Both the position numbers and the translations under genes were made by a program. From a virus, in IMG/VR virus record IMGVR_UViG_3300047496_000204, positions 10,764 through 74,763 of that record: a stretch of 64,000 bases of DNA. The stretch is one strand, 5' to 3'. The stretch's first letter is position 1; each line of letters begins with the position of its first letter. The notes under the pieces were generated by a model that was not told the origin of the DNA, did not search any database, and saw only the letters and a program-made list of their open reading frames with translations. Below, piece by piece: positions 24,484-46,775 of the stretch.

Positions 24484-24614
24484 TGGTGCCCTCGGTCGGA
24501 TTCGAACCGACACTTGCGAGATTTTTGGGCGACGATTCCGGGTTTGCACCGTAATAGGGCGTGATTACCCTTTTCATCGAAGTCTCGTGCCTCTGCCAGT
24601 TGGGCTACGAGGGC
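24484..24614 (-). tRNA. tRNA-Leu (probably TAA after excision) with a 54-nt anticodon insertion (24526-24579)
   Basis: Leu-type D arm, CGAGA-CTT[insert]AAAA-TCTCG, CCA. Confidence 0.8.
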
Positions 24615-24662
24615 ATTTGTAATTTTATATCATGATTGATGAGTTAATCAAGGAATTCCTAT

Positions 24663-24746
24663 TGGTGCCCCTCCCCGGATTCGAACCGGGACTCCTTTCG
24701 GAAAAGCATTTTGAGTGCTCCGCGTCTACCATTCCGCCAGAGAGGC
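24663..24746 (-). tRNA. tRNA-Leu(CAA)
   Basis: GAGCA-CTCAAAA-TGCTT, variable arm, CCA. Confidence 0.92.
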
Positions 24747-24800
24747 ATTAACATTTTTAGGATAGAGAAACGAACAGATATTGTCAATCAAAATATGTAG

Positions 24801-25088
24801 TTGTATTATGCAACTATGCAAAGAATTGTTTTGAAAAATTTACCAAGCATTCGAGAGAAGATGCTTTCGGAAACAAAAGAAACAATATCACCTCTTGGTT
24901 GGTGGAAATATACACCAGTCTTCAATGAAATATATGATTGGATGCAAGAAAATTGTAAAGGTAGATGGAAACAAGAATATGTTTGGTGTACCGAGCATCA
25001 CAATATTTTGAGTCCATATCATCAAGCAATAGGAATAAGATTTGATGATGACGCAGATGCAATATTTTTTAAATTGAGGTGGTCATGA
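24801..25088 (+). CDS. Small-protein family member
   Basis: Ends DAIFFKLRWS. Confidence 0.7.
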   Translation: MYYATMQRIVLKNLPSIREKMLSETKETISPLGWWKYTPVFNEIYDWMQENCKGRWKQEYVWCTEHHNILSPYHQAIGIRFDDDADAIFFKLRWS

Positions 25089-25387
25089 AAAAACTTAAAT
25101 TAAAGAATTTAGTTCGTAGAGAATTTTTAACAGAAGATCAACAAGAACTTGATATGTATGTGTGGAATACTGGTCGTAAATTGGAAACAATTGACAATTG
25201 GACCAGTATTCATGCTTGGTTAGACGAGAATGTCGGCCCAAAGTTTAAAGAAGGAAAAAATGAAGATGCCAAATGGTCGTGGGGGTGGGAAAGAAACCTT
25301 GATGAGGATGGATATTTTCAATCATCGGCGTGTTTTTATTTCACTGATTATGTAGATATGATTCATTTTAAGTTGAGGTGGGCATGA
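25085..25387 (+). CDS. Small-protein family member
   Basis: Ends DMIHFKLRWA. Confidence 0.7.
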   Translation: MKKLKLKNLVRREFLTEDQQELDMYVWNTGRKLETIDNWTSIHAWLDENVGPKFKEGKNEDAKWSWGWERNLDEDGYFQSSACFYFTDYVDMIHFKLRWA

Positions 25388-25388
25388 A

Positions 25389-25835
25389 ATGAATGTTCCT
25401 TCAATTAAAGATGCAACAACCGGTCGTGAATATTTTTACATGCCCGAAATAAATTTAAAGTGGTCAGATTTTTCTTATTGGATGCATTATAATATAGGTA
25501 CTCTTTTTCACGATTGGGATTGGCGTTATATTTCTTTAGATCGATCTATGTTTGTATGGTGCGCCAATCCATCAAATATTGAAATAATACAAAATAGATG
25601 GGTTAATAAATCTCTTTATCATATAAACACCACTTATATTTCGTATGACGAAGAATGGTTTGCTGAAAACAAAATTATATATGTGGTAGATGAAAATTTT
25701 GAAAATAGTCGAGCGGTGCAACATACCTGGATTAACTACCTAAATACAAATACTCATTATGTATTAAAAACTTTTTATAATTTAAGTTTTTCACATATTA
25801 ATGATATAATATTCTTCAAGATGCGATGGCAATAA
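25389..25835 (+). CDS. Small-protein family member (longer, possibly two repeats)
   Basis: Ends DIIFFKMRWQ. Confidence 0.7.
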   Translation: MNVPSIKDATTGREYFYMPEINLKWSDFSYWMHYNIGTLFHDWDWRYISLDRSMFVWCANPSNIEIIQNRWVNKSLYHINTTYISYDEEWFAENKIIYVVDENFENSRAVQHTWINYLNTNTHYVLKTFYNLSFSHINDIIFFKMRWQ

Positions 25836-25836
25836 T

Positions 25837-26088
25837 ATGCATGAGTATCAAATACGGCCAAGACACTTTATAGACTATCCATACAAAATGGCTGTCTCGA
25901 AATTATCTAATTTAATGGATTTATGCGAAACTACGGTATTACCGGAAGAAGTTAAAGAATGGATGATTTCCAATCATATAAGTGATTGGGGTTGGAATTG
26001 GATAGCCGTTTCTAATTTTCGTAACGATCTTTTCTACATGTTCGCCAATGAAAACGATGCGATATATTTTAAATTAAGATGGTCGTAA
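25837..26088 (+). CDS. Small-protein family member
   Basis: Ends DAIYFKLRWS. Confidence 0.7.
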   Translation: MHEYQIRPRHFIDYPYKMAVSKLSNLMDLCETTVLPEEVKEWMISNHISDWGWNWIAVSNFRNDLFYMFANENDAIYFKLRWS

Positions 26089-26148
26089 TATTTTCTTGAC
26101 GAAATAAAAATATATGCTAATCGTTATATAACCAGACGAGGCAAAATA

Positions 26149-27006
26149 ATGATCAAAATACTTTTTCCATTGGTAGTCCTTTTGATGGCTGAAACAGCAT
26201 TTGCTGAGACAGTTGATTCAAAAGTTGATTATGCTTTTGACACCAGCGGAAAGACTGCTCTGCATGTAACAGCGGATGATTATGTTGGAACCCTTGGTGT
26301 GGGTGCCGCATATACTCGTTTCACTACCTCTATTGGAACGTATAATAGTGCGGGTCTTCAACTTTTGGTAGACTATAAAATTTCAAATTATTCAATTAAC
26401 GGTCGTATTGGTGTGGCTGATTATAACGTAACGCCATATTTTCTCGGAAACATTTCGTTGGCCGATAAACTAACGAAACATATCACTATTTCAACGGGCA
26501 TTACGGGAGATATTGTAGATTCGGTGAAAAGTCTTAAGACTGGAACATCCGTATCTGGATACAATATTAATGCCGAAATAAATTATGGGCCGTTTGACAC
26601 CTTAATTACTGGAAAGCAAAGTTTTTATTCGAACGGGAACATTCAATCGGGCGTGATTGCCAGGACATATGTTAAACTTATTGATGGATTCAATCTGTAT
26701 ACCTCCCAACGGTATATCGTAAATTCCTTACCTTCGAATGGATATTTCTTTTCGCCACCTGATTATTCTCGTTTCAAGTTTGGCGCAGAATTTAAGAAAT
26801 CTTGGAAGGGTTATACGGTCTCTGGATCATATGATCGCGGCGTTGCCACTTCATATGGTAGAAGTGTTGATGTTAGTGCGTGGAAAGCTGGAATTGAAAA
26901 GAAAATCAAACCAGATTTATCCATTGCTGTAAATGCTGGATTTGATTTGAGCGACACCAATTATGTATATCATTTTGTGAATATAGGCTTCAATAAGTCA
27001 TTTTAA
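26149..27006 (+). CDS. Outer-membrane beta-barrel-like protein
   Basis: Signal peptide ending TAFA, alternating beta-strand pattern, YFFSPPDY loop, C-terminal Phe. Confidence 0.7.
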   Translation: MIKILFPLVVLLMAETAFAETVDSKVDYAFDTSGKTALHVTADDYVGTLGVGAAYTRFTTSIGTYNSAGLQLLVDYKISNYSINGRIGVADYNVTPYFLGNISLADKLTKHITISTGITGDIVDSVKSLKTGTSVSGYNINAEINYGPFDTLITGKQSFYSNGNIQSGVIARTYVKLIDGFNLYTSQRYIVNSLPSNGYFFSPPDYSRFKFGAEFKKSWKGYTVSGSYDRGVATSYGRSVDVSAWKAGIEKKIKPDLSIAVNAGFDLSDTNYVYHFVNIGFNKSF

Positions 27007-27040
27007 TCGAAAATCATTTTTGCGGGTTTTTTATAAGGCA

Positions 27041-27132
27041 TGGTAGTCCTGCTTGGATTCGAACCAAGATCACGCTCCAGTCCGGAGCTTACAGAGTATA
27101 AATCTGCTGCACTACCGTTGTGCTACAGGACC
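27041..27132 (-). tRNA. tRNA-Ile(TAT) with a long variable arm
   Basis: GCAGA-TTTATAC-TCTGT, GCTCC/GGAGC variable stem, CCA. Confidence 0.85.
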
Positions 27133-27139
27133 ATTGTTT

Positions 27140-28168
27140 TTAGTAAGCAAATTTCGATTTGAAATAATTCTTTTGGCTTCCGTTAAAAATTTCAGCGATA
27201 GTATATTCTTTTGCTTTTGTATCAAGTGTTTTACCAATAGATTTAGCGGCGGCTTGAGCTTCAATTTCGGTAAGAGGACGGAAATTCAAGACATCAAAAC
27301 ACCTACCAGGACGAAGAAAGGCTTCGTCAATTTTAGATGAATCTTTAATGTTAGCGGTGAAAATAAATTTCTTTTTTGAAAGTGGCACTAAACCATCCGC
27401 CGCATTCAAAATCTTGCTCATGGTAGCATTACTATCATGACCACGAGACCCAAGAATAAGATCGCTATCTTCAAGCATGAGATAGTTGAAATTTCTTGAT
27501 GAAATAAAAGTGATGTAGATTTCATCACCGGCCATGATGCTTTCGTCATATGTAGTCATTGCATTTTTACTAAAACGTTGCATTATGTATCGCAAAAAAG
27601 AAGTTTTACCAGTTCCAGGATCGCCTAATAACAGTAGAATGTTGGCAGAAGATTCGTCAAAATCTTTTATATATTGATCGACATCTTCTATCCATGGATA
27701 GAATTCTGGCCGGAAAATCATTTTTGTATCAATAGAAAAATCTGCATTCTGAATATTATTTCCAGCTTTATACCACCAAGTTAAAATAGGATTGGAACCT
27801 TCTTTAAAGTCATTAATTTTGTTGTAGAACTTTTCTAATACATTTACCGGACCATAAATATTAACCGTTGCTTCCCTTTTAATTTTAGTAAAAGGCTCTT
27901 CATTTGACATGAAAATCTCAATATATAAATTTTCATCATAAATCGTAATTTGACCTAATGCCGTATATTTCTTTACTTTTTCACTAAAGAAATTTCCGCA
28001 AATAGTTGAAACTGTATTGAAATAAGTATCAGTAAGAAATAGCATATCTATGCTAATATTGAATTCTGGATTATGAACTTCCATCCAATCATTAAACAAT
28101 TTTAAATGAAGCAGATCATCATTGGTGTTTTTATTATACGTAAAAACAGAAGCTATTTCAGTAGTCAT
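27140..28168 (-). CDS. AAA+ ATPase
   Basis: GDPGTGKT, LMLEDSD, FTAN and FLRPGRCFD (arginine finger). Confidence 0.9.
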   Translation of the reverse strand: MTTEIASVFTYNKNTNDDLLHLKLFNDWMEVHNPEFNISIDMLFLTDTYFNTVSTICGNFFSEKVKKYTALGQITIYDENLYIEIFMSNEEPFTKIKREATVNIYGPVNVLEKFYNKINDFKEGSNPILTWWYKAGNNIQNADFSIDTKMIFRPEFYPWIEDVDQYIKDFDESSANILLLLGDPGTGKTSFLRYIMQRFSKNAMTTYDESIMAGDEIYITFISSRNFNYLMLEDSDLILGSRGHDSNATMSKILNAADGLVPLSKKKFIFTANIKDSSKIDEAFLRPGRCFDVLNFRPLTEIEAQAAAKSIGKTLDTKAKEYTIAEIFNGSQKNYFKSKFAY

Positions 28169-28197
28169 TTTTTTCCATGTTTAAGTAAGAGATAGGG

Positions 28198-28271
28198 TAG
28201 ACTCGGAAGGACTTGAACCTTCAAAATACCAGCTTGATGCTGGCAGCGTATACCAATTCCGCCACGAGTCT
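28198..28271 (-). tRNA. tRNA-like gene with TCA anticodon (non-canonical A33/G38)
   Basis: AGACTCG/CGAGTCT acceptor, GCCAG-CATCAAG-CTGGT, canonical T arm. Confidence 0.55.
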
Positions 28272-28274
28272 ATA

Positions 28275-28514
28275 TTAGTTTTTAGTTTTTGTTAACTTTC
28301 CAAATTGTTCGTCAAGAGATTTAATATGCCCGAACTTGGCGCCCGATGCAATTTCTGAAATGCGTCCTTGATTACAATCGAATAATGATGCAATTCTTTT
28401 TTGCTGATGTCCCAATTTTAAAAGCAATTTAATCGTTGCCGCTGCGTCTTCATCAATCGGTTCAGACCGTTGAGTAATATGGGTATCAACCGCTTTTTTG
28501 GTTAAAAAATTCAT
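28275..28514 (-). CDS. Small helix-turn-helix protein
   Basis: QQKRIASLFDCNQGRISEIASG. Confidence 0.65.
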   Translation of the reverse strand: MNFLTKKAVDTHITQRSEPIDEDAAATIKLLLKLGHQQKRIASLFDCNQGRISEIASGAKFGHIKSLDEQFGKLTKTKN

Positions 28515-28515
28515 T

Positions 28516-28722
28516 TTACTCGAAGTCGCTGATAGCTTCTTGAATTTCTGTTTCTGTTTTAGAAACCCAATTTAAGATTTTACCGGTTTCAGTATCTATT
28601 TCAAGACGAATATAATCACCACCAATACCAAGACCATATGGCACATAACCATCATAGTCGATAGTTCCTGCGCGGAGATTAAACATATCGGAAACTTTTC
28701 CGGAGATCGTCATGATAGCCAT
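28516..28722 (-). CDS. Hypothetical phage protein
   Basis: ORF only. Confidence 0.6.
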   Translation of the reverse strand: MAIMTISGKVSDMFNLRAGTIDYDGYVPYGLGIGGDYIRLEIDTETGKILNWVSKTETEIQEAISDFE

Positions 28723-28767
28723 ATGAACCTACTATGATATTTTTTGAGGAATGTAAACGAAAAATTT

Positions 28768-28850
28768 TGGCACACCGAATTGGATTCGAACCAACCTTCT
28801 CAACTCCTGCTACGGATACTGCGTTCGAAGCGCAGCCCGGTTATCGGTGC
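28768..28850 (-). tRNA. D-armless tRNA-like gene, TCG (Arg) anticodon, long variable region
   Basis: GCACCGA/TCGGTGT, CTGCG-CTTCGAA-CGCAG, T arm, G-CCA; only 8 nt between acceptor and anticodon stems. Confidence 0.6.
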
Positions 28851-28889
28851 ATGATAAATAAAAGAAAGCTCAACGAAAAGAATTTGATC

Positions 28890-29153
28890 ATGTTTAATAT
28901 GAGAGATGTAATTAATAAATTACAAGAAAGTACGAAATTAAACGAACATACTAATATTTACACAGATCAAGCTAAAAGATTGTTAGATCAAGCAAATATT
29001 ATTAGAAAACAATTCGATAAATCTTGTTCGATCCCAGCAGGGTTCACCATTATTCCATTCTGTCATCCACCGCGCTACGAACGCGGGGGTAGGGGGTTCG
29101 ATTCCCTCATGCGGCGAACCAGCTACACGGAGGTTAAAAGTCTCCTGTGTTAA
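28890..29153 (+). pseudogene. Truncated late gene running into the scrambled tRNA locus
   Basis: GATAAATA at 28853-28860, MFNMRDVINKLQES start; reads into tRNA fragments after about 29025. Confidence 0.45.
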
Positions 29154-29220
29154 CTTTCCAAATTGTTCGTCAAGAGATTTAATATGCCCGAACTTGCTCT
29201 ATCCAATGAGCTAATGCGGC
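29026..29220. pseudogene. Scrambled tRNA-Arg(ACG) and tRNA-Lys(TTT) fragments on both strands
   Basis: Arg 5' part on minus (29195-29220), Arg 3' part on plus; Lys split at TTCG|ATC; 48-nt copy of 28291-28338 at 29149-29196. Confidence 0.7.
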
Positions 29221-29229
29221 ATTGTGTTT

Positions 29230-29314
29230 TGGTGCCTCTCTCCGGACTCGAACCGGAACTCCATTACGGAACCACGGTTTAAGCGTGGCGCGTCTACCAT
29301 TTCGCCAGAGAGGC
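29230..29314 (-). tRNA. tRNA-Leu(TAA)
   Basis: CCACG-CTTAAAC-CGTGG, variable arm, CCA. Confidence 0.92.
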
Positions 29315-29328
29315 ATTTAAAAAATGTT

Positions 29329-29405
29329 TGGTGCGCGTAGCGAGACTCGAACTCGCAAAACTTTCCGCACTCAACGGAACGACTTTACCATTTGCCCATA
29401 CGCAC
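29329..29405 (-). tRNA. tRNA-Leu(GAG), short variable loop
   Basis: TTCCG-TTGAGTG-CGGAA, CCA. Confidence 0.88.
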
Positions 29406-29417
29406 ATTTAGATATTT

Positions 29418-29494
29418 TGGTGTGCATACTCGGACTCGAACCGAGAAACTTTCCCTTCTGAGGGGAACGGCTTTACCAATTTGCCCATACGCAC
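29418..29494 (-). tRNA. tRNA-Leu(CAG), short variable loop
   Basis: TTCCC-CTCAGAA-GGGAA, CCA; paralog of the GAG gene. Confidence 0.88.
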
Positions 29495-29503
29495 AAGAAA
29501 AGA

Positions 29504-29588
29504 TGGTGGGTCATCTGGGACTCGAACCCAGGATGGCTTTCGCAACAGAGTAAGAGTCTGCCCCCTTCGCCGCTCGGGACAATGACCC
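29504..29588 (-). tRNA. tRNA with CTT (Lys) anticodon on a Tyr-like class II body
   Basis: GCAGA-CTCTTAC-TCTGT, CCCGAGCGGCGAAGGG D region, variable arm, CCA. Confidence 0.82.
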
Positions 29589-29596
29589 ATCTTTTT

Positions 29597-29684
29597 TGGT
29601 GCCTCTCTCCGGACTCGAACCGGAACGCCATTACAGCACTGAGGTTTGAAGCCAGCGCGTCTACCAATTTTTCACCAGAGAGGC
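29597..29684 (-). tRNA. tRNA-Leu(CAA), C31-C39 mismatch
   Basis: Aligns with the 29230 Leu gene: CTGGC-TTCAAAC-CTCAG. Confidence 0.8.
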
Positions 29685-29695
29685 ATTTAGAATAG

Positions 29696-29770
29696 TGGTG
29701 AACTCACTCGGATTCGAACCGAGAACCAACTCTTTAAAAGAGAGTTGCTCTACCGTTGAGCTATGAGTCC
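29696..29770 (-). tRNA. tRNA-Lys(TTT)
   Basis: ACTCT-CTTTTAA-AGAGT, CCA. Confidence 0.92.
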
Positions 29771-29771
29771 A

Positions 29772-29854
29772 TGGTGCCCTACCCCGGATTTGAACCGGGA
29801 TGCCTTGCGGCGGCAGCTTCTAAGGCTGCTGTGTATGCATTCCACCAGTAGGGC
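29772..29854 (-). tRNA. tRNA-Leu(TAG)
   Basis: GCAGC-CTTAGAA-GCTGC, variable arm, CCA. Confidence 0.92.
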
Positions 29855-29856
29855 AT

Positions 29857-29948
29857 TTGTTATATCAGATGAGACTCGAACTCACAAAACAACTAACGTT
29901 CCAAAGAACACTTCGTTGGTGTTTACCTTTTCACCACTGATATAACAA
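29857..29948 (-). ncRNA. Pseudo-tRNA with a 12-bp terminal stem and elongated anticodon arm
   Basis: TTGTTATATCAG/CTGATATAACAA, D-like and T arms present, no 7-nt anticodon loop. Confidence 0.5.
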
Positions 29949-29951
29949 GGC

Positions 29952-30023
29952 AGGCGCGCCGTAGGAATCGAACCCACATCTTCTCATTTGGAGGGAGACA
30001 ATCTACCATTGATATAGACGCCT
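29952..30023 (-). tRNA. tRNA-Trp(CCA), imperfect acceptor stem
   Basis: TCTCC-CTCCAAA-TGAGA, canonical T arm. Confidence 0.65.
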
Positions 30024-30040
30024 ATAGAGAAAAGTGTGTT

Positions 30041-30116
30041 TGGCAGAACTATCGAGACTCGAACTCGAAACTTAAGATTCGTAATCCTAGATGATAATCC
30101 ATTTCACCATAGCTCT
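30041..30116 (-). tRNA. tRNA-Arg(ACG)
   Basis: TAGGA-TTACGAA-TCTTA, AGAGCTA/TAGTTCT, G-CCA. Confidence 0.8.
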
Positions 30117-30228
30117 ACGAAACACACTTTTCTCAGAACCTTCCCCAAAAACTGCCGGGGAAGGCTTTGATTAAAACAACTTCCCCGCTGGCGACGGAAG
30201 AAGCCTTGATTCACGATGTAAAACAGAC

Positions 30229-30273
30229 AAAGAAAAACCCCGGATAAGCTTTTTTGAAAGCTCTTCCGGGGTT
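30229..30273 (-). terminator. Intrinsic terminator between leader 1 and the minus tRNA array
   Basis: AACCCCGGA...TCCGGGGTT followed by TTTCTTT on the minus strand. Confidence 0.85.
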
Positions 30274-30303
30274 GGTGTAAAATCCAACTATGTTAGGGTA
30301 AGT

Positions 30304-30396
30304 TTACCCCACGGTTGGCACACGACTCCCCGAAAACCCGAGCCACTTAAGGCGCAGGCTTTTCAAGCGGAGAGATATGCTTAACCGAGAGAACAT
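30304..30396 (-). CDS. Leader peptide 1, MFSRLSISLRLKSLRLKWLGFSGSRVPTVG (putative attenuator)
   Basis: AGGA SD 12 nt upstream, directly after the promoter, followed by the terminator; translated by hand. Confidence 0.7.
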   Translation of the reverse strand: MFSRLSISLRLKSLRLKWLGFSGSRVPTVG

Positions 30397-30456
30397 AATT
30401 AGTTTAATTCCTATATCTGTGATGCTAACGCGGGATGCGCTCGCTGTCTTGAAACC

Positions 30457-30487
30457 TATTTATCTCACAACGCTAAACCGGTGTCAA
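30457..30487 (-). promoter_or_regulatory. Promoter of the minus tRNA array, TTGACA-N17-GATAAATA
   Basis: Shares TTGTGAGATAAATAGGTT with the promoter at 35254. Confidence 0.8.
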
Positions 30488-30519
30488 TTAATTTTTCGAG
30501 ATTTTTTCATAAATAAAGA

Positions 30520-34537: not shown

Positions 34538-34966
34538 ATGGCTACTCGATCTAATATCGCAGTTCAACGACGCGACGGAACTTACAAAGTGATCTACTGT
34601 CATTGGGATGGCTATCCTACTGGTGTCGGGACACGTTTGATTAATTTCTATAATTCTCAGGAATTAGCCGAAGCATTAGTCGAACCGGGTGACATTTCAT
34701 ATATAGAAAAACGATGTGACGGAGCACCGGGACGCCACACCTCTGATACTCCGGTCAGCGATCAGACCGTGTATTACGGTCGAGATCGCGGTGAAGAAGG
34801 AACAGAAGGTGTTGTCGGAAATACACTAGAAGAATGCAATCATCCTACCATGGGTGGAGAATATTTTTATCTTTGGGAAAATAGAAATTGGTTAATCTCA
34901 GATGATGATGGTGAATTCGTTTCCCTTATTGATATAATAAAAAAGATGCACCAAATTTTGGTGTAG
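34538..34966 (+). CDS. Phage hypothetical protein (IYCHWDGY type), paralog 1
   Basis: Similar to 39409..39918 over most of its length. Confidence 0.75.
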   Translation: MATRSNIAVQRRDGTYKVIYCHWDGYPTGVGTRLINFYNSQELAEALVEPGDISYIEKRCDGAPGRHTSDTPVSDQTVYYGRDRGEEGTEGVVGNTLEECNHPTMGGEYFYLWENRNWLISDDDGEFVSLIDIIKKMHQILV

Positions 34967-38773: not shown

Positions 38774-38776
38774 AAA

Positions 38777-39408: not shown

Positions 39409-39918
39409 ATGGGCACAAGATCGGATATTATCGTTGAACATGCTGATGGCAAGTTCAAGAGAATTTACTGTCATTGGGATGGATATCTGGAAGGTGTTGG
39501 TCAAACACTTTTTTCTCATTACAATAGTCAAGAGCGCGCTGAAGCGGTAGTTGCGCCGGGTGATATGTCATCCTTGGCAGAAAGATGTGATGGGGAGCCT
39601 GGACATTCCTTCGATAATAACGTCAAGGGTCAAACCGTGTATTATGGTCGGGATCGTGGCGAAACAGAAATGGACGGCGTAGTTGGTGATACACTCGTTT
39701 CTGTTTGGCCGTCAGAGGGCACTTGGACGGAATTCACTTATGTTTGGACACAAGGTCGCTGGTGGGTCGCAGATGCCGATGAAGGTTCACAAGCCCTTCA
39801 TAGTCTGGAAGATGCCTTGAAGGGCGATGATCGTCCTACACCCTTGCCTTGGGTGATCCCGAGTAGGGACCGAGGACCGGGATCGAGGCCCGGCTTGTCC
39901 ACCAAAATAATATATTGA
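39409..39918 (+). CDS. IYCHWDGY-type protein, paralog 2
   Basis: Similar to 34538..34966; upstream TTGACA. Confidence 0.75.
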   Translation: MGTRSDIIVEHADGKFKRIYCHWDGYLEGVGQTLFSHYNSQERAEAVVAPGDMSSLAERCDGEPGHSFDNNVKGQTVYYGRDRGETEMDGVVGDTLVSVWPSEGTWTEFTYVWTQGRWWVADADEGSQALHSLEDALKGDDRPTPLPWVIPSRDRGPGSRPGLSTKIIY

Positions 39919-40113: not shown

Positions 40114-40126
40114 TTTTTAAGTTTAT

Positions 40127-40202: not shown

Positions 40203-40276
40203 GACTGCGACAGTATGTCGCATGCTATTACATAGCCTTACATGAAAGGTTTCGAACATAGAAGATAAATACTTCT

Positions 40277-41254
40277 ATGGAAACTTGTAGTATATGTAGT
40301 AAAACATTTAAGAATTCATTAGCATTAAGTGGTCATTCTCGGTGGCATAAAACCACCATATACAAAGAACCTATATTTGATTATTCTGTGTCATGTATTT
40401 TTACCAAAAAGAAAATGCACATCACTCGATGGGAAGACTATCAAAATAGGGTGAGAAACTGCCAATGCTGTAAAAAATTATTTGAGAAAATTGGTAATAC
40501 TTCTGGCCTCTTTTGTTCTAAAAGTTGTTCTGCCACCGAAAATAATAAAAAAAGAGAACCTGTATCAGATAAACAAAAACAAAAGACATCAAATGCCTTA
40601 AAAACCTATTTTGATAATCACGGAGGCCGACAGTGGTCAACAACACATAAAACAAAAATTGAAAATTATAAATATAATTTTATTTCTGTAAATTTTTCTA
40701 CTTGTATATGTGGAAAAATCTTCTTGAGCAAAGGCAAAAATTGGAAGCCAAAGAAACACTGTTCGACAAATTGTCGAAACGAAGCTCTAAGTGAAAATAG
40801 AATCAAATTTCTTCAAGAAAATGGAACGTCTAATTTTTCTACAAGAATTCCTGGATTTTGTTATAAAAACATAACCATCGATTGTGATTCAAAATTGGAA
40901 GCCGCTGCGGTTCAATATTTAATAGATGTTAAATCCGCATCTCATATCGAACGCTGTGAAAGCATTGTGAATTTCTATGATAAACATGGAAAACATCATA
41001 GATTTTTACCTGATTTTTTTGTGAGAATAGACTATAAAAGTTATATTGTTGAAGTAAAACAGGTTTACAGAAAATCAAGTTATATTGGAGATTACAATCA
41101 ATATTTTGAGGAAAAAAAGAAAGCGTTGTTGAAGTTTTGTGATGAAAAAAATTTAGAGATGTTGTGGTTAGATTTCGATTATGATAAATTGTTCGAAAAG
41201 ATGTATAGAAAGTTTTTGAAAGAAAATTGTGTTAAAATGTGCGGACGAAATTGA
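40277..41254 (+). CDS. Zinc-finger plus PD-(D/E)xK (TnsA-like) endonuclease in the tRNA array
   Basis: C2H2 finger, several CxxC/FCSKSC repeats, RFLPDFFV...IVEVK; GATAAATA at 40264-40271. Confidence 0.8.
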   Translation: METCSICSKTFKNSLALSGHSRWHKTTIYKEPIFDYSVSCIFTKKKMHITRWEDYQNRVRNCQCCKKLFEKIGNTSGLFCSKSCSATENNKKREPVSDKQKQKTSNALKTYFDNHGGRQWSTTHKTKIENYKYNFISVNFSTCICGKIFLSKGKNWKPKKHCSTNCRNEALSENRIKFLQENGTSNFSTRIPGFCYKNITIDCDSKLEAAAVQYLIDVKSASHIERCESIVNFYDKHGKHHRFLPDFFVRIDYKSYIVEVKQVYRKSSYIGDYNQYFEEKKKALLKFCDEKNLEMLWLDFDYDKLFEKMYRKFLKENCVKMCGRN

Positions 41255-41440
41255 GTTTCATTCCTCGACCCTAAAAGGTGACTAATGATTACTGAAAAAC
41301 AAAGAGACCGGATTTTCGATGAATGGCTTGAAAGAGAATTCGAAGAAGAATTGATAGATAATCCAATTCTTTGGCCTTTAACGACATCTTTTGCGTATTG
41401 TTTGATACGAAATGAAGACGAATCTCTTCATTGATTTTAT

Positions 41441-41514
41441 GGACATGTAGCTCATTGGTAGAGCATCGCACTGAAAATGCGAGTGTAAGTGGTTCGATTC
41501 CACTCTTGTCCACC
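41441..41514 (+). tRNA. tRNA-Phe(GAA)
   Basis: TCGCA-CTGAAAA-TGCGA. Confidence 0.9.
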
Positions 41515-41599
41515 GGGGAAGGCCCGCTACTTACACGCCAGATTCGTCCAGCGTTAGTTCAACGTAGAACATCCCCCTATTTTTATGTTGAAAGTTTTA

Positions 41600-41673
41600 T
41601 GAAGGTTGCCTCTTGGTGAGGCAGCGGTCCTTTGAAGTCCGCCAGCTTGGTTCGAACCCAAGACCTTCATCCA
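41600..41673 (+). tRNA. tRNA-Gln(TTG)
   Basis: U1-A72, CGGTC-CTTTGAA-GTCCG, CCA. Confidence 0.7.
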
Positions 41674-41677
41674 ATAT

Positions 41678-41753
41678 TCAGGGATAGTTCAATTGGTAGA
41701 ACATCGCTTTTTGGTAGCGAGTGTTGAGAGTTCGAGTCTTTCTCCCTGAGCCA
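41678..41753 (+). tRNA. tRNA-Gln(TTG)
   Basis: U1-A72, G73, TCGCT-TTTTGGT-AGCGA, CCA. Confidence 0.85.
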
Positions 41754-41755
41754 AA

Positions 41756-42412
41756 TCAAAAAATTATCTCGTTTAGAGGAATTTCTTTTTCAATTACTGA
41801 ATTGCCGGAAAAAGAAATAGTGGAACACATTTTCATCATTTCTTCTTCTTTACTGGATGATGTTAAAATTAATTGTGAATGTCTAATGCATGGAAGCATA
41901 CTTGTCCAAAAATCTTTTATTTTGGTTGGATTAGCCACTTCATAATCGTCTACTATTACCATGCTCAATGAAAGCCCCCGACCGGTAGTATCGGAAACAC
42001 TTCTAACAAGAAGCTGGCTATGGTTATCAAATTTCATTGAGCTTAAGTTGTATTCAGTTATTCCTTTTCTAAGAAAAATTGGAAGATTATCATACATAAT
42101 TTTTATAATATGAAGTTTTTCTTTTGCGCTTGCGACACTATTTCCGCAAAGCAATATAGTTTGATCTGAATTAAACATTGTCTTCCAAACAAGAAAAGCA
42201 CAAAGAGCAGAGGTTTTACCACTTTGTCTTGGTAATTCGAATGACAGTGTTCGATTTTCGCTATCGAGTTTGTTTATAATAATTTCTTGTTTAAAGGTAA
42301 GGTTCATCGGAACTAACCCTCTTATAAGATGCGACAATTTAATGTATGTGTTGATAAAATATACAGGATTAATTGCACATTTAGCGAATTCTTCTTCTAA
42401 TGATAATGACAT
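41756..42412 (-). CDS. Stand-alone terminase-large-subunit ATPase domain paralog, no nuclease domain
   Basis: KCAINPVYFINTY, LPRQSGKT and GRGLSLSMVIVDDY; 218 aa; GATAAATA at 42440-42447. Confidence 0.85.
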   Translation of the reverse strand: MSLSLEEEFAKCAINPVYFINTYIKLSHLIRGLVPMNLTFKQEIIINKLDSENRTLSFELPRQSGKTSALCAFLVWKTMFNSDQTILLCGNSVASAKEKLHIIKIMYDNLPIFLRKGITEYNLSSMKFDNHSQLLVRSVSDTTGRGLSLSMVIVDDYEVANPTKIKDFWTSMLPCIRHSQLILTSSSKEEEMMKMCSTISFSGNSVIEKEIPLNEIIF

Positions 42413-42583
42413 TTTTTCTCTAAAATTAACGTTGTATATTATTTATCTACAAGGTCTCCATCACCAATAACGATGGAGCGCAAGTCTCTTGATACGAGGG
42501 CAAGAGGGCCGTGAATATTTCGGTTGACACTTCTTCGAACTATGTTATCTTATGAAAATAATTTGACGCATAGGAGAAACATC

Positions 42584-42850
42584 ATGTCTGAACTTGCAAC
42601 ACTGGTTGAAGAAGTTCAAATTTCCAAGAAGGAATATTTGGAATATCTTGAGGAACATGGTTCCACGAGTAATACTGAACGTTATAAGGAACTTTCGAAG
42701 CCGTCGTATCGGAAGCCGCTAGTCAATCGCGTCTATCGTGCTGTTCGAGCGTTGAGCGATTATATGCAGAAGGAAACTGGACTGACTTCTTATCAATTCA
42801 GTGATCTTTTTTCGAGTTATGGATATATGGGTAATCCGGACGAGGAATAG
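42584..42850 (+). CDS. Hypothetical protein
   Basis: AGGAG SD. Confidence 0.65.
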   Translation: MSELATLVEEVQISKKEYLEYLEEHGSTSNTERYKELSKPSYRKPLVNRVYRAVRALSDYMQKETGLTSYQFSDLFSSYGYMGNPDEE

Positions 42851-42894
42851 AGAAAATGTTCACGCGCTTGGCGTGAAATTTAGAGGAATTTTAA

Positions 42895-43416
42895 ATGACT
42901 TACGATGAAGCTATTGCGATTTTGACTCAATTTTGTGCCAAAATTGACGGTCTGACATTTAGTCAATGTGAAGTTGGTGTTGGTCGGCCAGCAGTTGCTT
43001 TATTCTTGGATGACAAGATTCTTCACTACAATTTTTGGACGTATGATAGTTCTACTGGTGATTTCATTAGCCCATTTCCAGAGGAAATGGAAATTGATGT
43101 TCCGGATGGAGTTAATGCCTATCACAAGGATAATTTCATTGCCGTGTTAATTGGGGAAGGTCAAATCAATATTGAACGAAGTGTTATTCCATTGATTCAA
43201 GCTCTCAACGGCGAAAATCCGGATACGATCTTGGCGAATATGCCTGAAGAAGAAACTCAAGACCAAGAAACCTTGGAAGAAGCCTTCAAGCAGTTGGCTA
43301 TCTGGTGTTTGTCTATGAAAAAACAACAAATTGAAATTGCGATATATACAGACACCAATCAGAGCTATGGTCCTGGAAATAGTGCTATTCCGATTGTTGT
43401 AAAAATCTTGGAGTAA
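42895..43416 (+). CDS. Hypothetical protein
   Basis: GAGGA SD. Confidence 0.7.
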   Translation: MTYDEAIAILTQFCAKIDGLTFSQCEVGVGRPAVALFLDDKILHYNFWTYDSSTGDFISPFPEEMEIDVPDGVNAYHKDNFIAVLIGEGQINIERSVIPLIQALNGENPDTILANMPEEETQDQETLEEAFKQLAIWCLSMKKQQIEIAIYTDTNQSYGPGNSAIPIVVKILE

Positions 43417-43471
43417 ATTTTAAAAATCGTTTGACAATAGTTAGAACTATGTTATCTTGATTAAGTAATCA

Positions 43472-43600
43472 GTTCGGCGGCGGGACGACGACTCCGTAAG
43501 TCCGCAGAACTACTCTACCAGGGTGAGGAGAAGTTGGAGTCGGGTGGATGCCCTGGGGCTGTAATGGCTTTCCCACTTCTCCTCTCCCAGGGCCGATAGT
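43472..43600 (+). ncRNA. GC-rich structured leader with a possible pseudoknot
   Basis: GCGGGAC/GTCCGC hairpin whose loop GACTCC (43490-43495) complements GGAGTC (43536-43541). Confidence 0.4.
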
Positions 43601-43777
43601 TGAATAAAAAGGAGATTGATATGTCCAAGGAAGAAATTATTCAGTTTTTGAAGGATAATCTTACTATTCATCTTGAAGTGGAGGATTATGGTTCTAGCAA
43701 CCAAGTTAATATTAAGTTGTGTTTAGATGGAGAAGAAATTTCTTCCACCTTCCAATATATTTCAAAGGGTGAATAAT

Positions 43778-44017
43778 ATGTGTGAATGTTACAATATCGA
43801 TCATCCCGGCTTCGATCCGGCTTGCCCACTTCATGGTATTAACGGTATTTACCAGCGAGAAAGTGAATCCGAAGCTGCGTTCGAACGCTGGTGGCTTACT
43901 CAAGAACAGCAGTCTCAAGTGCCGATTTCTGAAGAACACCGCGCTGTTCTCAATATTTTTCGTAAGGTTTCTTGGAACGCTTGGCAAGCGGCTATTTCTT
44001 ATATGGCAGATGCGTGA
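43778..44017 (+). CDS. Hypothetical protein
   Basis: ORF only. Confidence 0.5.
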   Translation: MCECYNIDHPGFDPACPLHGINGIYQRESESEAAFERWWLTQEQQSQVPISEEHRAVLNIFRKVSWNAWQAAISYMADA

Positions 44018-44517
44018 TGCAAAATATTTTCATCGTAGTCGCATATGGCGGCCAATATGAAAACGCTTGGGGATCAATATCGGCAGCTTTCACTGATAGA
44101 TCATCGGCCGAGGCGTATATTCTTTATAAAGAAGATTTAGCGCAACGCATTTATCAAAAAGAAGTTTTGTTGGCTGCTTTTTATGAGAAGTATGAAGCGG
44201 AAAATCCGCGCCCGCCACGTGCAGTTCAACATGTTCTTCCACGTTGGAGATCGGGAATGTCCGAAAAAGATATTACCCCCGAGATGCGGACGGAACGAAC
44301 ACGTCTTTTCGATCTAAATAGCAAACTTGCGGAAGAAGCAAGCATCGCTTACGAAATATATGAAGAAACTTTACTTGCGGCTCAACAACAATATGCCGAG
44401 GCTGGTGGTATCGATTCTCCTGATCGAATCGTTAGGTATGCCAATATGCCAGATGTTCGTTGGCGTATCGATGAAAATTTTCTGCATTCTTCTTTCGATC
44501 CTATTCACTTTCATTAG
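44017..44517 (+). CDS. Hypothetical protein
   Basis: ORF only. Confidence 0.6.
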   Translation: MQNIFIVVAYGGQYENAWGSISAAFTDRSSAEAYILYKEDLAQRIYQKEVLLAAFYEKYEAENPRPPRAVQHVLPRWRSGMSEKDITPEMRTERTRLFDLNSKLAEEASIAYEIYEETLLAAQQQYAEAGGIDSPDRIVRYANMPDVRWRIDENFLHSSFDPIHFH

Positions 44518-44835
44518 GAAATATCTGATGGAAACTGTTTTAAAAGAACCAATTCTTCGTGATGATCACCCGATTTATGCGGATTATATTTACATTGCTG
44601 ATGGAAAAGTTTACATTTCGGATTGAAATTACGGTTCGAGAACTAAAGTCGAGAGAAGGTTTTACGGAAATCCGGAGATGCGATATATATGGCCGTAATC
44701 TCGGACATAAAATACAGAAAGAAGAAACAGATGTATCTTTCCCATTTCCAGAAAGAATTGCTCCTAAGCCTATTAGAGTGAAAAAGGCTGGAAAACATGG
44801 TAAGGTAAAGATTAAGAATAGATTTAAATTTAAAT

Positions 44836-44990
44836 GCCGGTTTAGCTCATTTGGTAGAGCGCCTGTTTGGAGGAAAGTGATCAGTGATCAGTGATCATAG
44901 AACATATCACCAGTGGATATGATGGTGCAAATCCAGAATCCTCAAAATTGTAATCAGGGGGCGGCAAGTTCGAAACTTGCAACCGGCGCC
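44836..44990 (+). tRNA. tRNA-Thr (GGT or TGT depending on the junction) with an approximately 80-nt anticodon insertion
   Basis: GCCGGTT/AACCGGC, CCTGT-TT[insert]TGTAA-TCAGG; insert contains AGTGATC x3. Confidence 0.8.
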
Positions 44991-45515
44991 CTAATAACTT
45001 TTTCCTTCGCTATATCTTTGGCGGCGAAACGCCCTGCCATTTCCAATATTCAATGCTTTAAAAGTTGGAGTTTGTGAATGACAATTTGGACAAAGCAATG
45101 TCGTGTTTTCTCGTGAATGATCATCGGAATTACCATTGATGTGTTCAATTTCCAAATATATAGGTAAATTATTCCAAGTAGTGTTTAAGCATTTCTGACA
45201 TTGATGCCCAAGTTCTTCTACGAGTTGTTTTTTCCTGCGCTTGGATGACCAAACAGAATTAGGGTTATTTTTAAATAATTCCCATTTATTTTTAAAGAAA
45301 CATCGTTGTGAGCAATATATTTGTCTCTGAGAATAGATAATAGTGCTACAATGTAGGCAAATTCCGTTCTCTTTATTTTTTCTAATTTTTTTATTTTTTG
45401 TTTTTGTAATCGATTTAGTTATTTTTGAAATTCTTTTAGTATTATTTACTGATGCCGAGCAAGAACGATTGCAAAAAATATTTCCATGTTTTCTTTTTTC
45501 ATAAGGAATTATCAT
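44991..45515 (-). CDS. HNH homing endonuclease
   Basis: LEIEHINGNSDDH...LLCPNCHSQT; the frame stays open upstream through a C2H2-like finger without a canonical start. Confidence 0.88.
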   Translation of the reverse strand: MIIPYEKRKHGNIFCNRSCSASVNNTKRISKITKSITKTKNKKIRKNKENGICLHCSTIIYSQRQIYCSQRCFFKNKWELFKNNPNSVWSSKRRKKQLVEELGHQCQKCLNTTWNNLPIYLEIEHINGNSDDHSRENTTLLCPNCHSQTPTFKALNIGNGRAFRRQRYSEGKSY

Positions 45516-45796
45516 TTTACAATGCAGACAATGATCAGTTTTTAATCCATATTTTTCTTCCGCTGTCAGTAATTTGAACGTAGGATCAAGTTTTCTTTGA
45601 TGGCGATATAAAGATTTTTGGGCTGAATATGATTTTTGCGGTTGACAACAATTACATTTAAATCTAATATCTCCTTATATTCGAAAAGGAGATAATCATG
45701 ATGAATTTGAACGAACTGGTCTTTATGCTGGTGTTTTAGGTGAAATGTCTCCGCTCCAAACTCTTGGTGCGAGACTTCTTTTGGAGGGTTGGTAAA

Positions 45797-46174
45797 ATGA
45801 CAAATTACAATGAAATAGTTGATACCGTTTTGGCGGCTCCAGCGGATGCGCGTGTTTTTGTTCTGAAGGGAATTTTCTCTGATTCTGAACGGAATTTCAA
45901 TCTTCTTTTGCTGGATTGTATGTTAGAACGCCTTCAAGTATGGCCTTATCGAGATTCTGTTACCAGTTTGGTTAGTAATGAAATACATTCTGAACGATTA
46001 AATGAAATCGTTGATTTTCTTTTGGATTCATCTCGGGAAGCCAGATTTTATGCTTTGAAGGGTATTCTGGTTGAGTATTCTACTAACAGTTTTCTTGTTC
46101 TGTTGGCTCATAATTTGATTTCTCGGCTGGCGTTTCAGAAGTTCAACCTGGACAAGAATGTGGAATGTCTGTAG
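45797..46174 (+). CDS. Hypothetical protein with two internal repeats
   Basis: EIVDTVL...ARVFVLKGI and EIVDFLL...ARFYALKGI. Confidence 0.6.
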   Translation: MTNYNEIVDTVLAAPADARVFVLKGIFSDSERNFNLLLLDCMLERLQVWPYRDSVTSLVSNEIHSERLNEIVDFLLDSSREARFYALKGILVEYSTNSFLVLLAHNLISRLAFQKFNLDKNVECL

Positions 46175-46357
46175 CAGGTTTTCATGACATTCAAATTGGC
46201 GATATAATTGAATGTCATGATAAAGAACAAGAAGCTTTACCTGCAACGATTTCCTGGGAAATTGTAAAGGCAAAAGGTTTGACCTTAGACTTGAAGGGTA
46301 AATTATTTTAAAGAAAACTGTTGACAATATTACCTATTTTGGATAATATACACAAAT

Positions 46358-46636
46358 GGTAGTGACAAGAAGAAAAGAGCTAAGCCCAGAAGTAGTTGCA
46401 GCGAAATTGGGCTAACATCTTAATATTCTGGCTCACATGACTCTGCAAAGTCCCTGGATCGTGTCCAGGCTACCGAACATTAGAATTACTTGCCCGTCCT
46501 ACTGTTTCCGATGGTAGGGCGGGCGAGAGAAGGAATTTAGCAGAATTGCTAAATGCGTTCCCGCTCTGTGAAAACATCGGGCTTGGCGGCGATCTGATAA
46601 CCATCAGAAACTATTCTGTGGCAGATCGTTGTCAAC
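46358..46636 (+). ncRNA. Unassigned multi-hairpin RNA preceding tRNA-Ala
   Basis: TTGACA-N17-TAATAT promoter at 46321-46349; at least five stems; no ORF with a credible start. Confidence 0.5.
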
Positions 46637-46638
46637 TT

Positions 46639-46775
46639 GTGGCCTTAGCTCATCTGGAAGAGCGTCTGCCTTGGGAGAAAGCGGCTTATGGTCGTAGTTC
46701 AGTAATGACGGTGCAAATCCGGAATCTCCGTGAAGCACGCAGAAGGTGGTCGGTTCGAGCCCGACAGGCTACACC
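46639..46775 (+). tRNA. tRNA-Ala(TGC) with a 62-nt anticodon insertion (46674-46735)
   Basis: G3-U70 pair, TCTGC-CTTG[insert]CAC-GCAGA. Confidence 0.85.

Follow-up and report, generated by a model that had tools for sequence, protein, structure and literature searches.

A family of small, mobile putative introns with tRNA-like dimensions in the anticodon loops of jumbo-phage tRNA genes

To our knowledge, every intron reported to date from a bacterial or phage tRNA is a self-splicing group I ribozyme, and protein-spliced tRNA introns are regarded as an archaeal and eukaryotic trait. Group I introns interrupt anticodon loops in bacteria and phages, for example that of tRNA-Leu(UAA) at the site CUU/AAAA (10.1101/2020.01.27.920355; PMC3984707). 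They are about 200 nt or longer, contain a P3-P9 core and end in a terminal G. The archaeal and eukaryal introns of the bulge-helix-bulge type are small, lack a ribozyme, also lie in the anticodon loop, and have to be cut and ligated by proteins (EndA/Sen plus RtcB/Trl1). We found no published description of the family reported here; the closest in print are the 'enigmatic' introns in the tRNAs of Lak megaphages (Devoto et al. 2019, PMC6784885, Table S6).

The window, i.e. the whole stretch of 64,000 nucleotides analysed here, comes from a phage of about 500 kb found in a moss metagenome. Three of its tRNA genes, with the anticodons UAA, UGU and UGC, are interrupted by homologous inserts of 54, 80 and 62 nt. 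The original prediction of three tRNAs carrying inserts of the same layout was borne out by ARAGORN with introns allowed and by direct reading of the sequence:

24484-24614, minus strand: interrupted class I tRNA(UAA); Rfam tRNA score 47 bits across the gap, spliced form called tRNA-Leu(taa); 5' exon 24580-24614, intron 24526-24579, 3' exon 24484-24525
44836-44991, plus strand: interrupted tRNA-Thr(UGU); 5' exon 44836-44868, intron 44869-44948, 3' exon from 44949
46639-46775, plus strand: interrupted tRNA-Ala(UGC) with G3:U70; 5' exon 46639-46672, intron 46673-46734, 3' exon 46735-46775

When the inserts are removed in silico, ARAGORN calls Leu(UAA), Thr(UGU) and Ala(UGC), and the anticodons match the tRNA bodies as had been claimed. 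Placing the Ala insert at 46673-46734 or at 46674-46735 gives the same product, since one G can slide. The name 'Leu' holds for the call made on the spliced form but not for the body, which is of class I with a 5-nt variable loop and is not that of a classical bacterial Leu tRNA; this gene has an uninterrupted homologue (L402:94-170). Ala(UGC) and the uninterrupted tRNA-Ala of a relative (G001) have the same anticodon stem, and the interrupted Ala and Thr tRNAs are the sole Ala and Thr tRNAs in the record. Within the family, the predicted spliced products make good tRNAs, with anticodons that fit the bodies (G3:U70 in Ala, U1-A72 plus G73 in Gln, the long variable arm in Leu). Two of the three genes are missed both by default ARAGORN and by Rfam at the gathering score, and the third is found by Rfam alone.

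The inserts themselves, termed mini-introns below, are organized as follows:

24526-24579, minus strand: Leu copy, 54 nt; covariance model 61.9 bits, E = 8e-17
outer parts of the Leu copy, minus strand: N1 24579, P1 24574-24578, P1' 24531-24535, tail GCCCA 24526-24530
inner parts of the Leu copy, minus strand: P2 24557-24570, T-arm hairpin 24539-24551, GAA 24536-24538
44869-44948, plus strand: Thr copy, 80 nt; covariance model 36.5 bits, E = 8e-9
outer parts of the Thr copy, plus strand: N1 44869, P1 44870-44874, P1' 44939-44943, tail 44944-44948
inner parts of the Thr copy, plus strand: T-arm hairpin 44923-44935, GAA 44936-44938
46673-46734, plus strand: Ala copy, 62 nt; covariance model 40.9 bits, E = 3e-10
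outer parts of the Ala copy, plus strand: N1 46673, P1 46674-46678, P1' 46725-46729, tail 46730-46734
inner parts of the Ala copy, plus strand: P2 from 46681, T-arm hairpin 46709-46721, GAA 46722-46724

All three read P1, AAG, a variable hairpin, Y-GGTGCAAAY-CC-R, GAA and P1'; the Thr copy has a long P2 with three TGATCAG repeats, plus an extra hairpin. The covariation noted earlier is seen both in P1 (GAUGA/UCGUC plus a C-G pair, GAGGA/UCCUC and GGAGA/UCUCC in Leu, Thr and Ala, respectively) and in the pair closing the T-arm hairpin (C-G, U-A and C-G, in the same order). An exact 11-mer occurs three times in the window, each time within one of the inserts; with one mismatch there are 7 matches against 1.4 expected, the other four being ordinary tRNA T arms. 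Chance is not the explanation for the shared motif.

When the Thr and Ala inserts are left out of the covariance model, it still recovers both (E = 1e-8 and 3e-10). The model search for homologues that had been suggested, combined with pattern scans, gave ten further distinct members in jumbo-phage fragments, 13 in total, and no member among 185,579 prokaryote genomes. The common layout is found in 13/13, i.e. N1, a 5-bp P1, AA, a variable hairpin, the T-arm hairpin, GAA, P1' and a 5-nt tail. In the helices 96% of the cells are paired, as opposed to 24-64% if the partners are slid by 1-3 columns, and double-sided changes affect two positions in P1 as well as the closing pair of P3. P2 has a different sequence in nearly every member and forms a hairpin in all of them, and the G-U pairs of P1 and P2 are compatible with sense-strand RNA only. 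The junction bases G5 A6 A7 A8 G10, A50 and G64 A65 A66 U67 C68 never vary, while P2 and J2/3 drift.

It is instructive to compare this family with the known classes of introns and ribozymes. No Rfam family matches the inserts, in line with the suggestion of a new structured class that is neither group I nor bulge-helix-bulge. Firstly, group I was rejected: the inserts give no match to Rfam Intron_gpI with its P3-P9 core, either at the gathering score or at E <= 10, and the last intron base may be A, U or G, so there is no conserved terminal G. Nevertheless, the two kinds of intron share several traits: they reside in the same kind of host gene (the Leu mini-introns at the identical CUU/AAAA site), a U precedes the 5' splice site (in 12/13 mini-introns), they are mobile and sporadic, and group I introns can also be paired with free-standing homing endonucleases, as mini-introns may be. 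Secondly, group II introns were rejected, as the inserts measure 50-80 nt against a six-domain ribozyme of at least several hundred nt and have no Rfam match. Thirdly, inspection of the 13 precursors revealed no 4-bp helix between two 3-nt bulges, and the bulge-helix-bulge type was rejected; the 5' site lies beside P1 and the 3' site within a single strand of 8-9 nt, with no intervening helix. Unlike in that type, splicing would take place 1 nt ahead of P1 and 5 nt beyond P1' and not at 37/38, the setting is that of bacterial viruses, and the recognised shape is proposed to be tRNA-like, although cutting and ligation by proteins is proposed here as well. Finally, small self-cleaving ribozymes (hammerhead, twister, pistol, hatchet and others) gave no Rfam match at E <= 10, and on inspection the inserts have neither the hammerhead core CUGAUGA nor the A15.1-U16.1 pair.

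One might still think of a new small ribozyme, self-splicing or doubly self-cleaving, with the purine-rich three-way junction as its catalytic core; the exons would then be joined by the RNA itself, or by RtcB or heal-and-seal repair after self-cleavage. The invariance of the junction, splice sites fixed to the intron and not to the tRNA, and the U at the 5' exon end, as in group I introns, would all agree with this idea, as would the use of a classical group I site by the Leu members (10.1101/2020.01.27.920355), and reverse splicing would suit insertion after U in several different anticodon loops. However, the self-splicing raised in the original prediction gained no known ribozyme signature, i.e. 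neither a ribozyme or intron match in Rfam, even at E = 10, nor a terminal G or the hammerhead elements. Moreover, we know of no natural self-splicing RNA of 50 nt, and we regard a ribozyme as quite improbable.

The dimensions of the fold point in another direction. The hairpin loop varies like the T loops of tRNAs, with U54, C56 and A58 fixed among the sequences found (UGCAAAU, UGCAAAC, UUCAAAU, UUCAAGU and UGCGAAU); UGCAAAU loops are also present in genuine phage T arms. The T loop and the 3' splice site are separated by 16 nt in 13/13 members, which, given their shared ancestry, is one observation for the family, plus two for other insert types. These 16 nt equal 12 stacked layers and a 4-nt overhang, the spacing of a tRNA. 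The 5' splice site is one base before P1. Both sites are constant relative to the insert and fall at 33/34 (Thr, Gln) or 34/35 (Leu, Ala) of the host tRNA, always directly 3' of U33 or U34 in the three tRNAs of the window. The acceptor mimic has seven layers (N1, P1 as G-R-N-G-A, and A7 against A66-U-C-N-Y-C-X72) and the T stem five (R49-A50-Y-G-G against C-C-R-G64-A65), the latter with three Watson-Crick pairs plus purine-purine layers; 3/12 layers are non-Watson-Crick (A7-A66, A50-G64, N49-A65). P2, whose first base is G, occupies the place of the D arm, some copies have an additional hairpin at the place of the anticodon arm, and the four unpaired 3'-terminal bases lie at the place of N73-CCA. 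The CCCA end pointed out earlier is indeed there in the Leu copy, the only one of the 13 to have it. A minihelix with U54/C56/A58 in the T loop, 12 layers and a 4-nt 3' overhang is found in 13/13. The same features, with acceptor and T arm and no anticodon arm, characterize the minihelix substrates of RNase P and the tRNA-like domain of tmRNA; mini-introns differ in having two purine-purine mismatch layers in the T stem and one in the acceptor, and in mostly lacking CCA. The Rfam tRNA model (RF00005) matches neither the Thr insert nor that of L230 when these are given by themselves, even at E = 10; the likeness to tRNA resides in the dimensions and the T arm. We consider these tRNA-sized dimensions, which the original prediction had not noticed, the main clue to how the insert may be removed.

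The same geometry would also suit a real product, i.e. a tRNA-like small RNA acting, for instance, as a decoy for tRNA-targeting defence nucleases or as a handle for tRNA-binding enzymes, released from the carrier transcript by tRNA-processing enzymes with or without rejoining of the exons. The mature-tRNA end geometry with its conserved T loop, the CCCA of the Leu copy and a free-standing element (at L392) that shares the tandem-GA T stem and the GAA junction speak for such a product. Yet the insert is always positioned so that the spliced tRNA is perfect, something a released RNA would not need. The conservation of P2 and J2/3 is poor, and no function can be tied to the insert; we find this reading highly improbable.

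The original count of three interrupted tRNAs was correct for those three genes, but a fourth had been missed:

22900-23044, minus strand: interrupted tRNA(CAU) with a Lak-like, tRNA-shaped insert at 22938-23004

Unrelated to the mini-intron family, this insert has a leader of 13 nt and an acceptor mimic of 7 bp (UGCCUUU/AAAGGCG), with UUUGG-UUCGAUC-CCAAA as its T arm and CAAA as the overhang; its 3' splice site is also 16 nt after the T loop. In four Lak-phage introns the corresponding distance, which we measured from Table S6 of PMC6784885, is 15-16 nt. Like mini-introns, the Lak introns are short, without ORFs or Rfam matches, and located in anticodon loops of huge-phage tRNAs, and by our own reading of Table S6 they have an acceptor-plus-T-arm module ending at the 3' splice site. 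Copies from different cohorts are identical, some genomes have them and others do not, and the mini-introns are sporadic as well. On the other hand, Lak introns measure 79-114 nt, have their tRNA-like module preceded by a 5' hairpin and an A-rich leader, show ordinary T arms with full 5-bp stems, use the sites 37/38 or 38/39 and have no sequence in common with the mini-introns. The Leu, Thr and Ala inserts lack the leader and 5' hairpin, which the insert at 22938-23004 has, and all end the module at the 3' splice site. Judged by these features, the fourth insert is of the Lak-like kind and the other three appear not to be.

With somewhat less than even confidence, we propose that mini-introns are small (50-80 nt), ribozyme-less, mobile and tRNA-shaped elements that are removed by tRNA end-processing nucleases and an RNA ligase. 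The insert's own fold would set both splice sites: the 5' cut would fall at the base of the acceptor mimic, after U, where RNase P cleaves a tRNA precursor, and the 3' cut after the 4-nt overhang, by a putative 3' endonuclease. The tRNA body would hold the exon halves together while an RNA ligase seals the 3'-OH/5'-phosphate nick in the anticodon loop. RNase P prefers U at position -1. In its most specific form, the proposal amounts to a third tRNA-splicing route in bacterial viruses, in which a tRNA disguise would attract RNase P and a 'position 76' 3' endonuclease before resealing by a ligase, with neither a ribozyme nor a bulge-helix-bulge endonuclease; this we consider unlikely. RNase Z normally cuts after position 73, and a nuclease that would cleave a CCA-less, tRNA-like RNA behind position 76 is not known to us. 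The junction bases are more conserved than mimicry would require, which is an argument against RNase P mimicry, and RNase P cannot set the 5' splice sites of the other insert types because of their leaders of 13-30 nt. The part originally suggested for a ligase-like gene at 4695 found no support, as the same gene is present in the intron-free relative G001. The suggested concealment of the anticodon from host nucleases gained no support either.

At the DNA level, the neighbours of the mini-introns deserve attention:

44991-45515, minus strand: free-standing HNH endonuclease gene, 174 aa (phrog_10822 and phrog_1271)
46769-47410, minus strand: paralogous HNH endonuclease gene of the same family, 213 aa

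The 3' end of the first gene touches the 3' end of the interrupted tRNA-Thr and that of the second overlaps the interrupted tRNA-Ala by 7 nt; these are the only two copies of the family in the 134-kb record, which covers 26% of the phage genome. Genes of the same family adjoin intron-bearing tRNAs in two unrelated phages, so the suspected link to homing endonucleases has gained support. In G043 and G048 a homologous gene stands at a distance of 65 nt from the interrupted tRNA-Leu, and G047 lacks it at this place; most carriers have no HNH gene beside the intron. The introns are absent from the closest complete relative. The family is mobile, as had been predicted: it is found in four tRNA kinds (Leu, Thr, Ala and Gln) and on phage contigs that share almost no proteins. 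Introns with free-standing endonucleases have precedents in T4 mobE with the nrdB intron (PMC2790892) and in cyanophage F-CphI with the psbA intron (PMC6083498). Both in such collaborative homing and in our case an ORF-less intron lies beside a free-standing endonuclease gene that some close relatives have and others lack. The known cases involve a self-splicing group I ribozyme and a mapped endonuclease target, whereas the mini-intron has no ribozyme core. We propose that the intron travels with the neighbouring endonuclease in a similar manner, and that it probably protects its gene from this enzyme.

The HNH genes beside interrupted genes could also mean that the insert is never spliced, being a DNA-level element that breaks the HNH site and so gives immunity, or a small non-autonomous transposon, in tRNAs that are dispensable pseudogenes; phage tRNAs are often dispensable. 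Several lines of evidence argue against this. Compensatory changes preserve the helices, as do G-U pairs, which are functional in the sense RNA only, and loop variation follows the T-loop rule. The exons are intact, with identity elements kept and covariation across distant carriers, and the boundaries always give back a 7-nt loop with the expected anticodon. The absence of an HNH gene beside the intron in most carriers also counts against it, and we judge an unspliced element fairly improbable.

As regards removal by tRNA-processing enzymes and what it would mean, a conserved intron of 50 nt without a ribozyme core would have to be either a new, very small ribozyme or the sign of a splicing pathway not known in bacteria. 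Mini-introns recur in jumbo phages, their removal restores perfect tRNAs, and their splice sites seem to be set by their own tRNA-like fold. They form a small, clearly delimited family whose members are easy to synthesise. The analysis also supplies a structural reading for the unexplained introns of Lak megaphages and connects tRNA introns with the free-standing nucleases found in phage tRNA clusters. It further shows that probably functional phage tRNAs are overlooked by the standard tRNA finders.

The source of the window is a 134.5-kb IMG/VR virus record from a moss metagenome, of which the window covers bases 10764-74763. The GC content is 37%, and the CheckV completeness of 26% implies a phage of about 500 kb. 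The window encodes a large terminase, gp32-like and UvsX/RecA-like proteins, a Thg1-like enzyme, a PTH2-like hydrolase and a small ligase-like protein; its roughly 30 tRNA genes form two arrays. When introns are allowed, ARAGORN finds four interrupted tRNAs in the record, all within the window:

24526-24579, minus strand: mini-intron of 54 nt in the tRNA with anticodon UAA ("Leu")
44869-44948: mini-intron of 80 nt in tRNA-Thr(UGU)
46673-46734: mini-intron of 62 nt in tRNA-Ala(UGC)
22900-23044, minus strand: tRNA(CAU), absent from the original prediction, with a 67-nt Lak-like insert (22938-23004) at position 38/39

None of the first three is detected by ARAGORN with default settings, and the Rfam tRNA model at its gathering score detects the Leu gene alone, bridging the gap. 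Once the inserts are removed in silico, ARAGORN calls Leu(UAA), Thr(UGU) and Ala(UGC). The tRNA-Ala carries G3:U70 and shares its entire anticodon stem sequence with the uninterrupted tRNA-Ala of G001, the closest complete relative phage. The three inserts have the blocks GA-AAG and A-Y-GG-UGCAAAY-CC-R-GAA-UC in common, their P1 stems covary, and no Rfam family matches them up to E = 10. The original prediction held that three tRNAs bear a common structured insert with a covarying P1, and that its removal restores tRNAs with matching anticodons; given the shared blocks, the covarying P1, the good tRNAs predicted after removal and the lack of an Rfam match, this observation is confirmed.

A metagenome scan for the T-arm hairpin (P3) with a real T loop some 31 nt farther downstream returned mostly coding sequence, and also six true homologues in interrupted tRNAs:

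contig L220: tRNA-Gln(UUG)
contigs L230 and L237: tRNA-Ala(UGC)
contigs L239 and L254: class-II tRNA-Leu(UAA)
contig L309: class-I tRNA(UAA)

A second scan, of IMG/VR with the loop sequence left free, added seven loci with introns in class-II tRNA-Leu(UAA) (four distinct sequences; loops UUCAAAU, UUCAAGU or UGCGAAU). The covariance-model search proposed with the original prediction bears the family out: a model (R1) based on four minimal Leu introns recovers every member with E = 1e-5 to 1e-20, including the Thr and Ala copies, which took no part in building it. The exact motif GGTGCAAAYCCRGAATC has 27 matches in IMG/VR, all by chance in coding sequence; the motif combined with a downstream T loop gave, among the matches listed, nothing but genuine tRNAs whose T loop is UGCAAAU; and in 185,579 prokaryote species genomes a pattern scan, for the GGTGCAAAYCC form only, gave 27 matches, none in a tRNA.

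The window and the other contigs contain further unusual tRNAs. Class-I tRNAs, i.e. with a short variable loop, carry the Leu anticodons UAA, GAG and CAG (24484-24614, 29329-29405, 29418-29494, L402:94-170 and L309:1307-1434), and the UAA type recurs in other phages with or without the mini-intron. In L309 a gene for a CCA-adding enzyme (L309:21-1163) lies directly upstream of the intron-bearing tRNA(UAA). A tRNA(UCA) (28195-28272, minus strand) has an anticodon that would read UGA; ORF lengths in the record give no support to TGA or TAG recoding as its explanation. A 92-nt tRNA-Ile(UAU) with an extra hairpin 3' of the anticodon arm is found at 27041-27132 (minus strand) and at L254:4052-4143. 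The tRNA arrays also house a small-protein family, phrog_23089/phrog_1987 (34538-34966, 39409-39918, G000:C1:95745-96134 and L254:838-1314), which is multi-copy and is the only protein family common to this phage and contig L254. A second terminase-like ORF (41756-42412, minus strand, 218 aa), matching the large terminase N-terminal domain only, sits within the tRNA region, far from the full terminase gene (1-1638).

The order of elements is the same in all 13 distinct members of the alignment: N1, the 5-bp stem P1 (G-R-N-G-A), a short A run (AA or AAA, in one member GA), the variable hairpin P2, a joining stretch, P3 (A-Y-GG, a 7-nt loop, CC-R), GAA, P1' and five bases. P2 begins with G and differs in sequence in almost every member, and in some the joining stretch holds one additional hairpin. 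In the Thr intron P2 (44878-44898) consists of three tandem TGATCAG units, each with the palindrome TGATCA. Pairing is found in 96% of cells on the fitted alignment; sliding the partners by 1-3 columns lowers this to 24-64%. Two P1 positions and the Y-R pair closing P3 show changes on both sides of the pair. G-U pairs in P1 and P2 are compatible with sense-strand RNA only, which means that an RNA structure, and not a hairpin in DNA, is conserved. We have little doubt that the family and its fold are real. RNAfold gives an alternative in which the G run after AAG pairs with the CC of the hairpin; we discarded it, since it does not work where P2 is long. Reading the junction as a hammerhead, a K-turn or a bulge-helix-bulge was ruled out by inspection. 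We also rejected a guide-like pairing between AAG and the CUU that ends the 5' exon: it would form a strained pseudoknot, and L220 (GAG vs CU) shows no covariation.

In the 7-nt loop U54, C56 and A58 are invariant while positions 55, 57, 59 and 60 vary, and the same rule holds for the T loops of tRNAs. One subgroup has the textbook GG-UUCAAAU-CC. UGCAAAU loops are found in the T arms of genuine phage tRNAs too (contigs L095, L123, L139, L144 and L163), where G replaces the near-universal U55. The loop end and the predicted 3' splice site are 16 nt apart in every one of the 13 members, a distance made up of CC-R-G-A (5), A-U-C-N-Y-C-X (7) and four unpaired bases. In a tRNA, positions 61-65, 66-72 and 73-76 have these same lengths. 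On the opposite strand N1, P1 and the first A provide seven layers; an invariant A50-G64 and N49-A65 (G-A, A-A or U-A) complete a five-layer T stem. The first G of P2 is at the place where G10 opens a D stem, and the Leu copy in the window has the 3' end CCCA. From this loop rule and these segment lengths it follows that the mini-intron is a miniature tRNA without the anticodon arm, a statement about dimensions and T arm; the insert alone gets no score with the Rfam tRNA model. A free-standing tRNA-like element, outside any tRNA, is present in contig L392 (about 4796-4854, minus strand) and has a GAUGG-UUCGAAU-CCAGA T stem with tandem G-A pairs and a GAA junction, as in the mini-introns.

The insert at 22938-23004 is unrelated to this family. 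It combines a 13-nt leader with a 7-bp acceptor mimic, a T arm of the ordinary kind and the overhang CAAA. Its predicted 3' splice site, too, is 16 nt past the T loop, so that the 5' exon keeps a whole CUCAUAC loop. Four Lak-megaphage introns were printed by Devoto et al. 2019 (PMC6784885, Table S6), who called them enigmatic and remarked that one may encode a tRNA; they are built in the same way, with 15-16 nt past the T loop by our reading of the sequences. A third kind of insert interrupts a homologue of the window's tRNA(CAU) at 34/35 (L254:4273-4405) and is a 57-nt long hairpin with P1 GAUGUAGA/UCUACAUC and no T-loop hairpin. The original prediction saw no evident hallmarks of group I or bulge-helix-bulge introns; the mini-intron family fails the defining tests for these, and likewise for group II introns and known small ribozymes. 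Full-text literature searches gave no description of it beyond the Lak note.

The predicted splice sites follow the intron and not the host tRNA. Without exception the predicted 5' site precedes P1 by one base, and the predicted 3' site lies five bases past P1'. Host numbering places the insert at 33/34 for Thr and Gln and at 34/35 for Leu and Ala; contig L371 is ambiguous (34/35 or 35/36). The last base of the 5' exon is U in 12 of 13 members, and all host tRNAs have U34. Comparison of the members establishes a conserved RNA fold, predicted cut positions that are fixed relative to it, and predicted products that are good tRNAs with matching identity elements; the mini-intron is probably a spliced intron.

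We tentatively suggest that proteins may remove it, its tRNA-like shape determining the sites. Enzymes recognising tRNA shape would then excise the insert. Cutting past the 4-nt overhang would produce an anticodon loop nicked between a 3'-OH and a 5'-phosphate, and an ATP-dependent RNA ligase could seal this nick, end-healing not being needed. The 5' site would be the place of an RNase P cut on a minihelix, and U at -1 is favoured by RNase P; that this enzyme specifically makes the 5' cut is a still more tentative suggestion. In the leader-bearing insert types the predicted 5' site cannot be that of RNase P. No nuclease is known to us that would cut at "position 76" when CCA is absent. The mini-intron might instead be a small ribozyme, since its junction bases are more conserved than tRNA mimicry alone accounts for.

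The proposed dependence on the ligase-like gene at 4695-5318 found no support, since G001 is intron-free and has this gene too, and there is therefore no link with the introns. Searches of Pfam, PHROG and PDB link its product to a distant ATP-dependent ligase domain and to nothing else, and a single-sequence AlphaFold model (pLDDT 38) is too poor for use. The gene is part of a tRNA-related cluster near the terminase (4695-8173: this 207-aa protein, a DUF7277/DUF7275 protein and a Thg1-like 3'-5' polymerase), and the PTH2-like hydrolase gene (20794-21387) lies farther along.

The carriers are fragments of phages with estimated sizes of 250-500 kb and have almost no proteins in common with this phage. 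No mini-intron is present in G001 (561 kb, TerL 68% identical) or in 41 other viral records. This distribution, with no match to the GGTGCAAAYCC form in a tRNA of the scanned prokaryote genomes, shows that the mini-intron is sporadic and moves horizontally. The record has exactly two HNH genes of one family (phrog_1271 and phrog_10822, 33% mutual identity), and each abuts or overlaps an intron-bearing tRNA at its 3' end, one at Thr and the other at Ala. A homologue lies 65 nt downstream of an intron-bearing tRNA-Leu in the unrelated phage fragments G043 and G048; in the fragment G047 and at three other loci this intron occurs with no HNH gene at that place. The suggested tie to homing endonucleases thus finds support at Thr, Ala and Leu tRNAs. 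Relatives in contigs L402 and L403 are in tRNA arrays beside uninterrupted tRNAs, so the HNH family is tied to tRNA arrays generally and not to introns only. Free-standing homing endonucleases, and collaborative homing as described with group I introns (PMC2790892, PMC6083498), show a matching pattern; the mini-intron may break the putative target of the HNH nuclease and spread with it.
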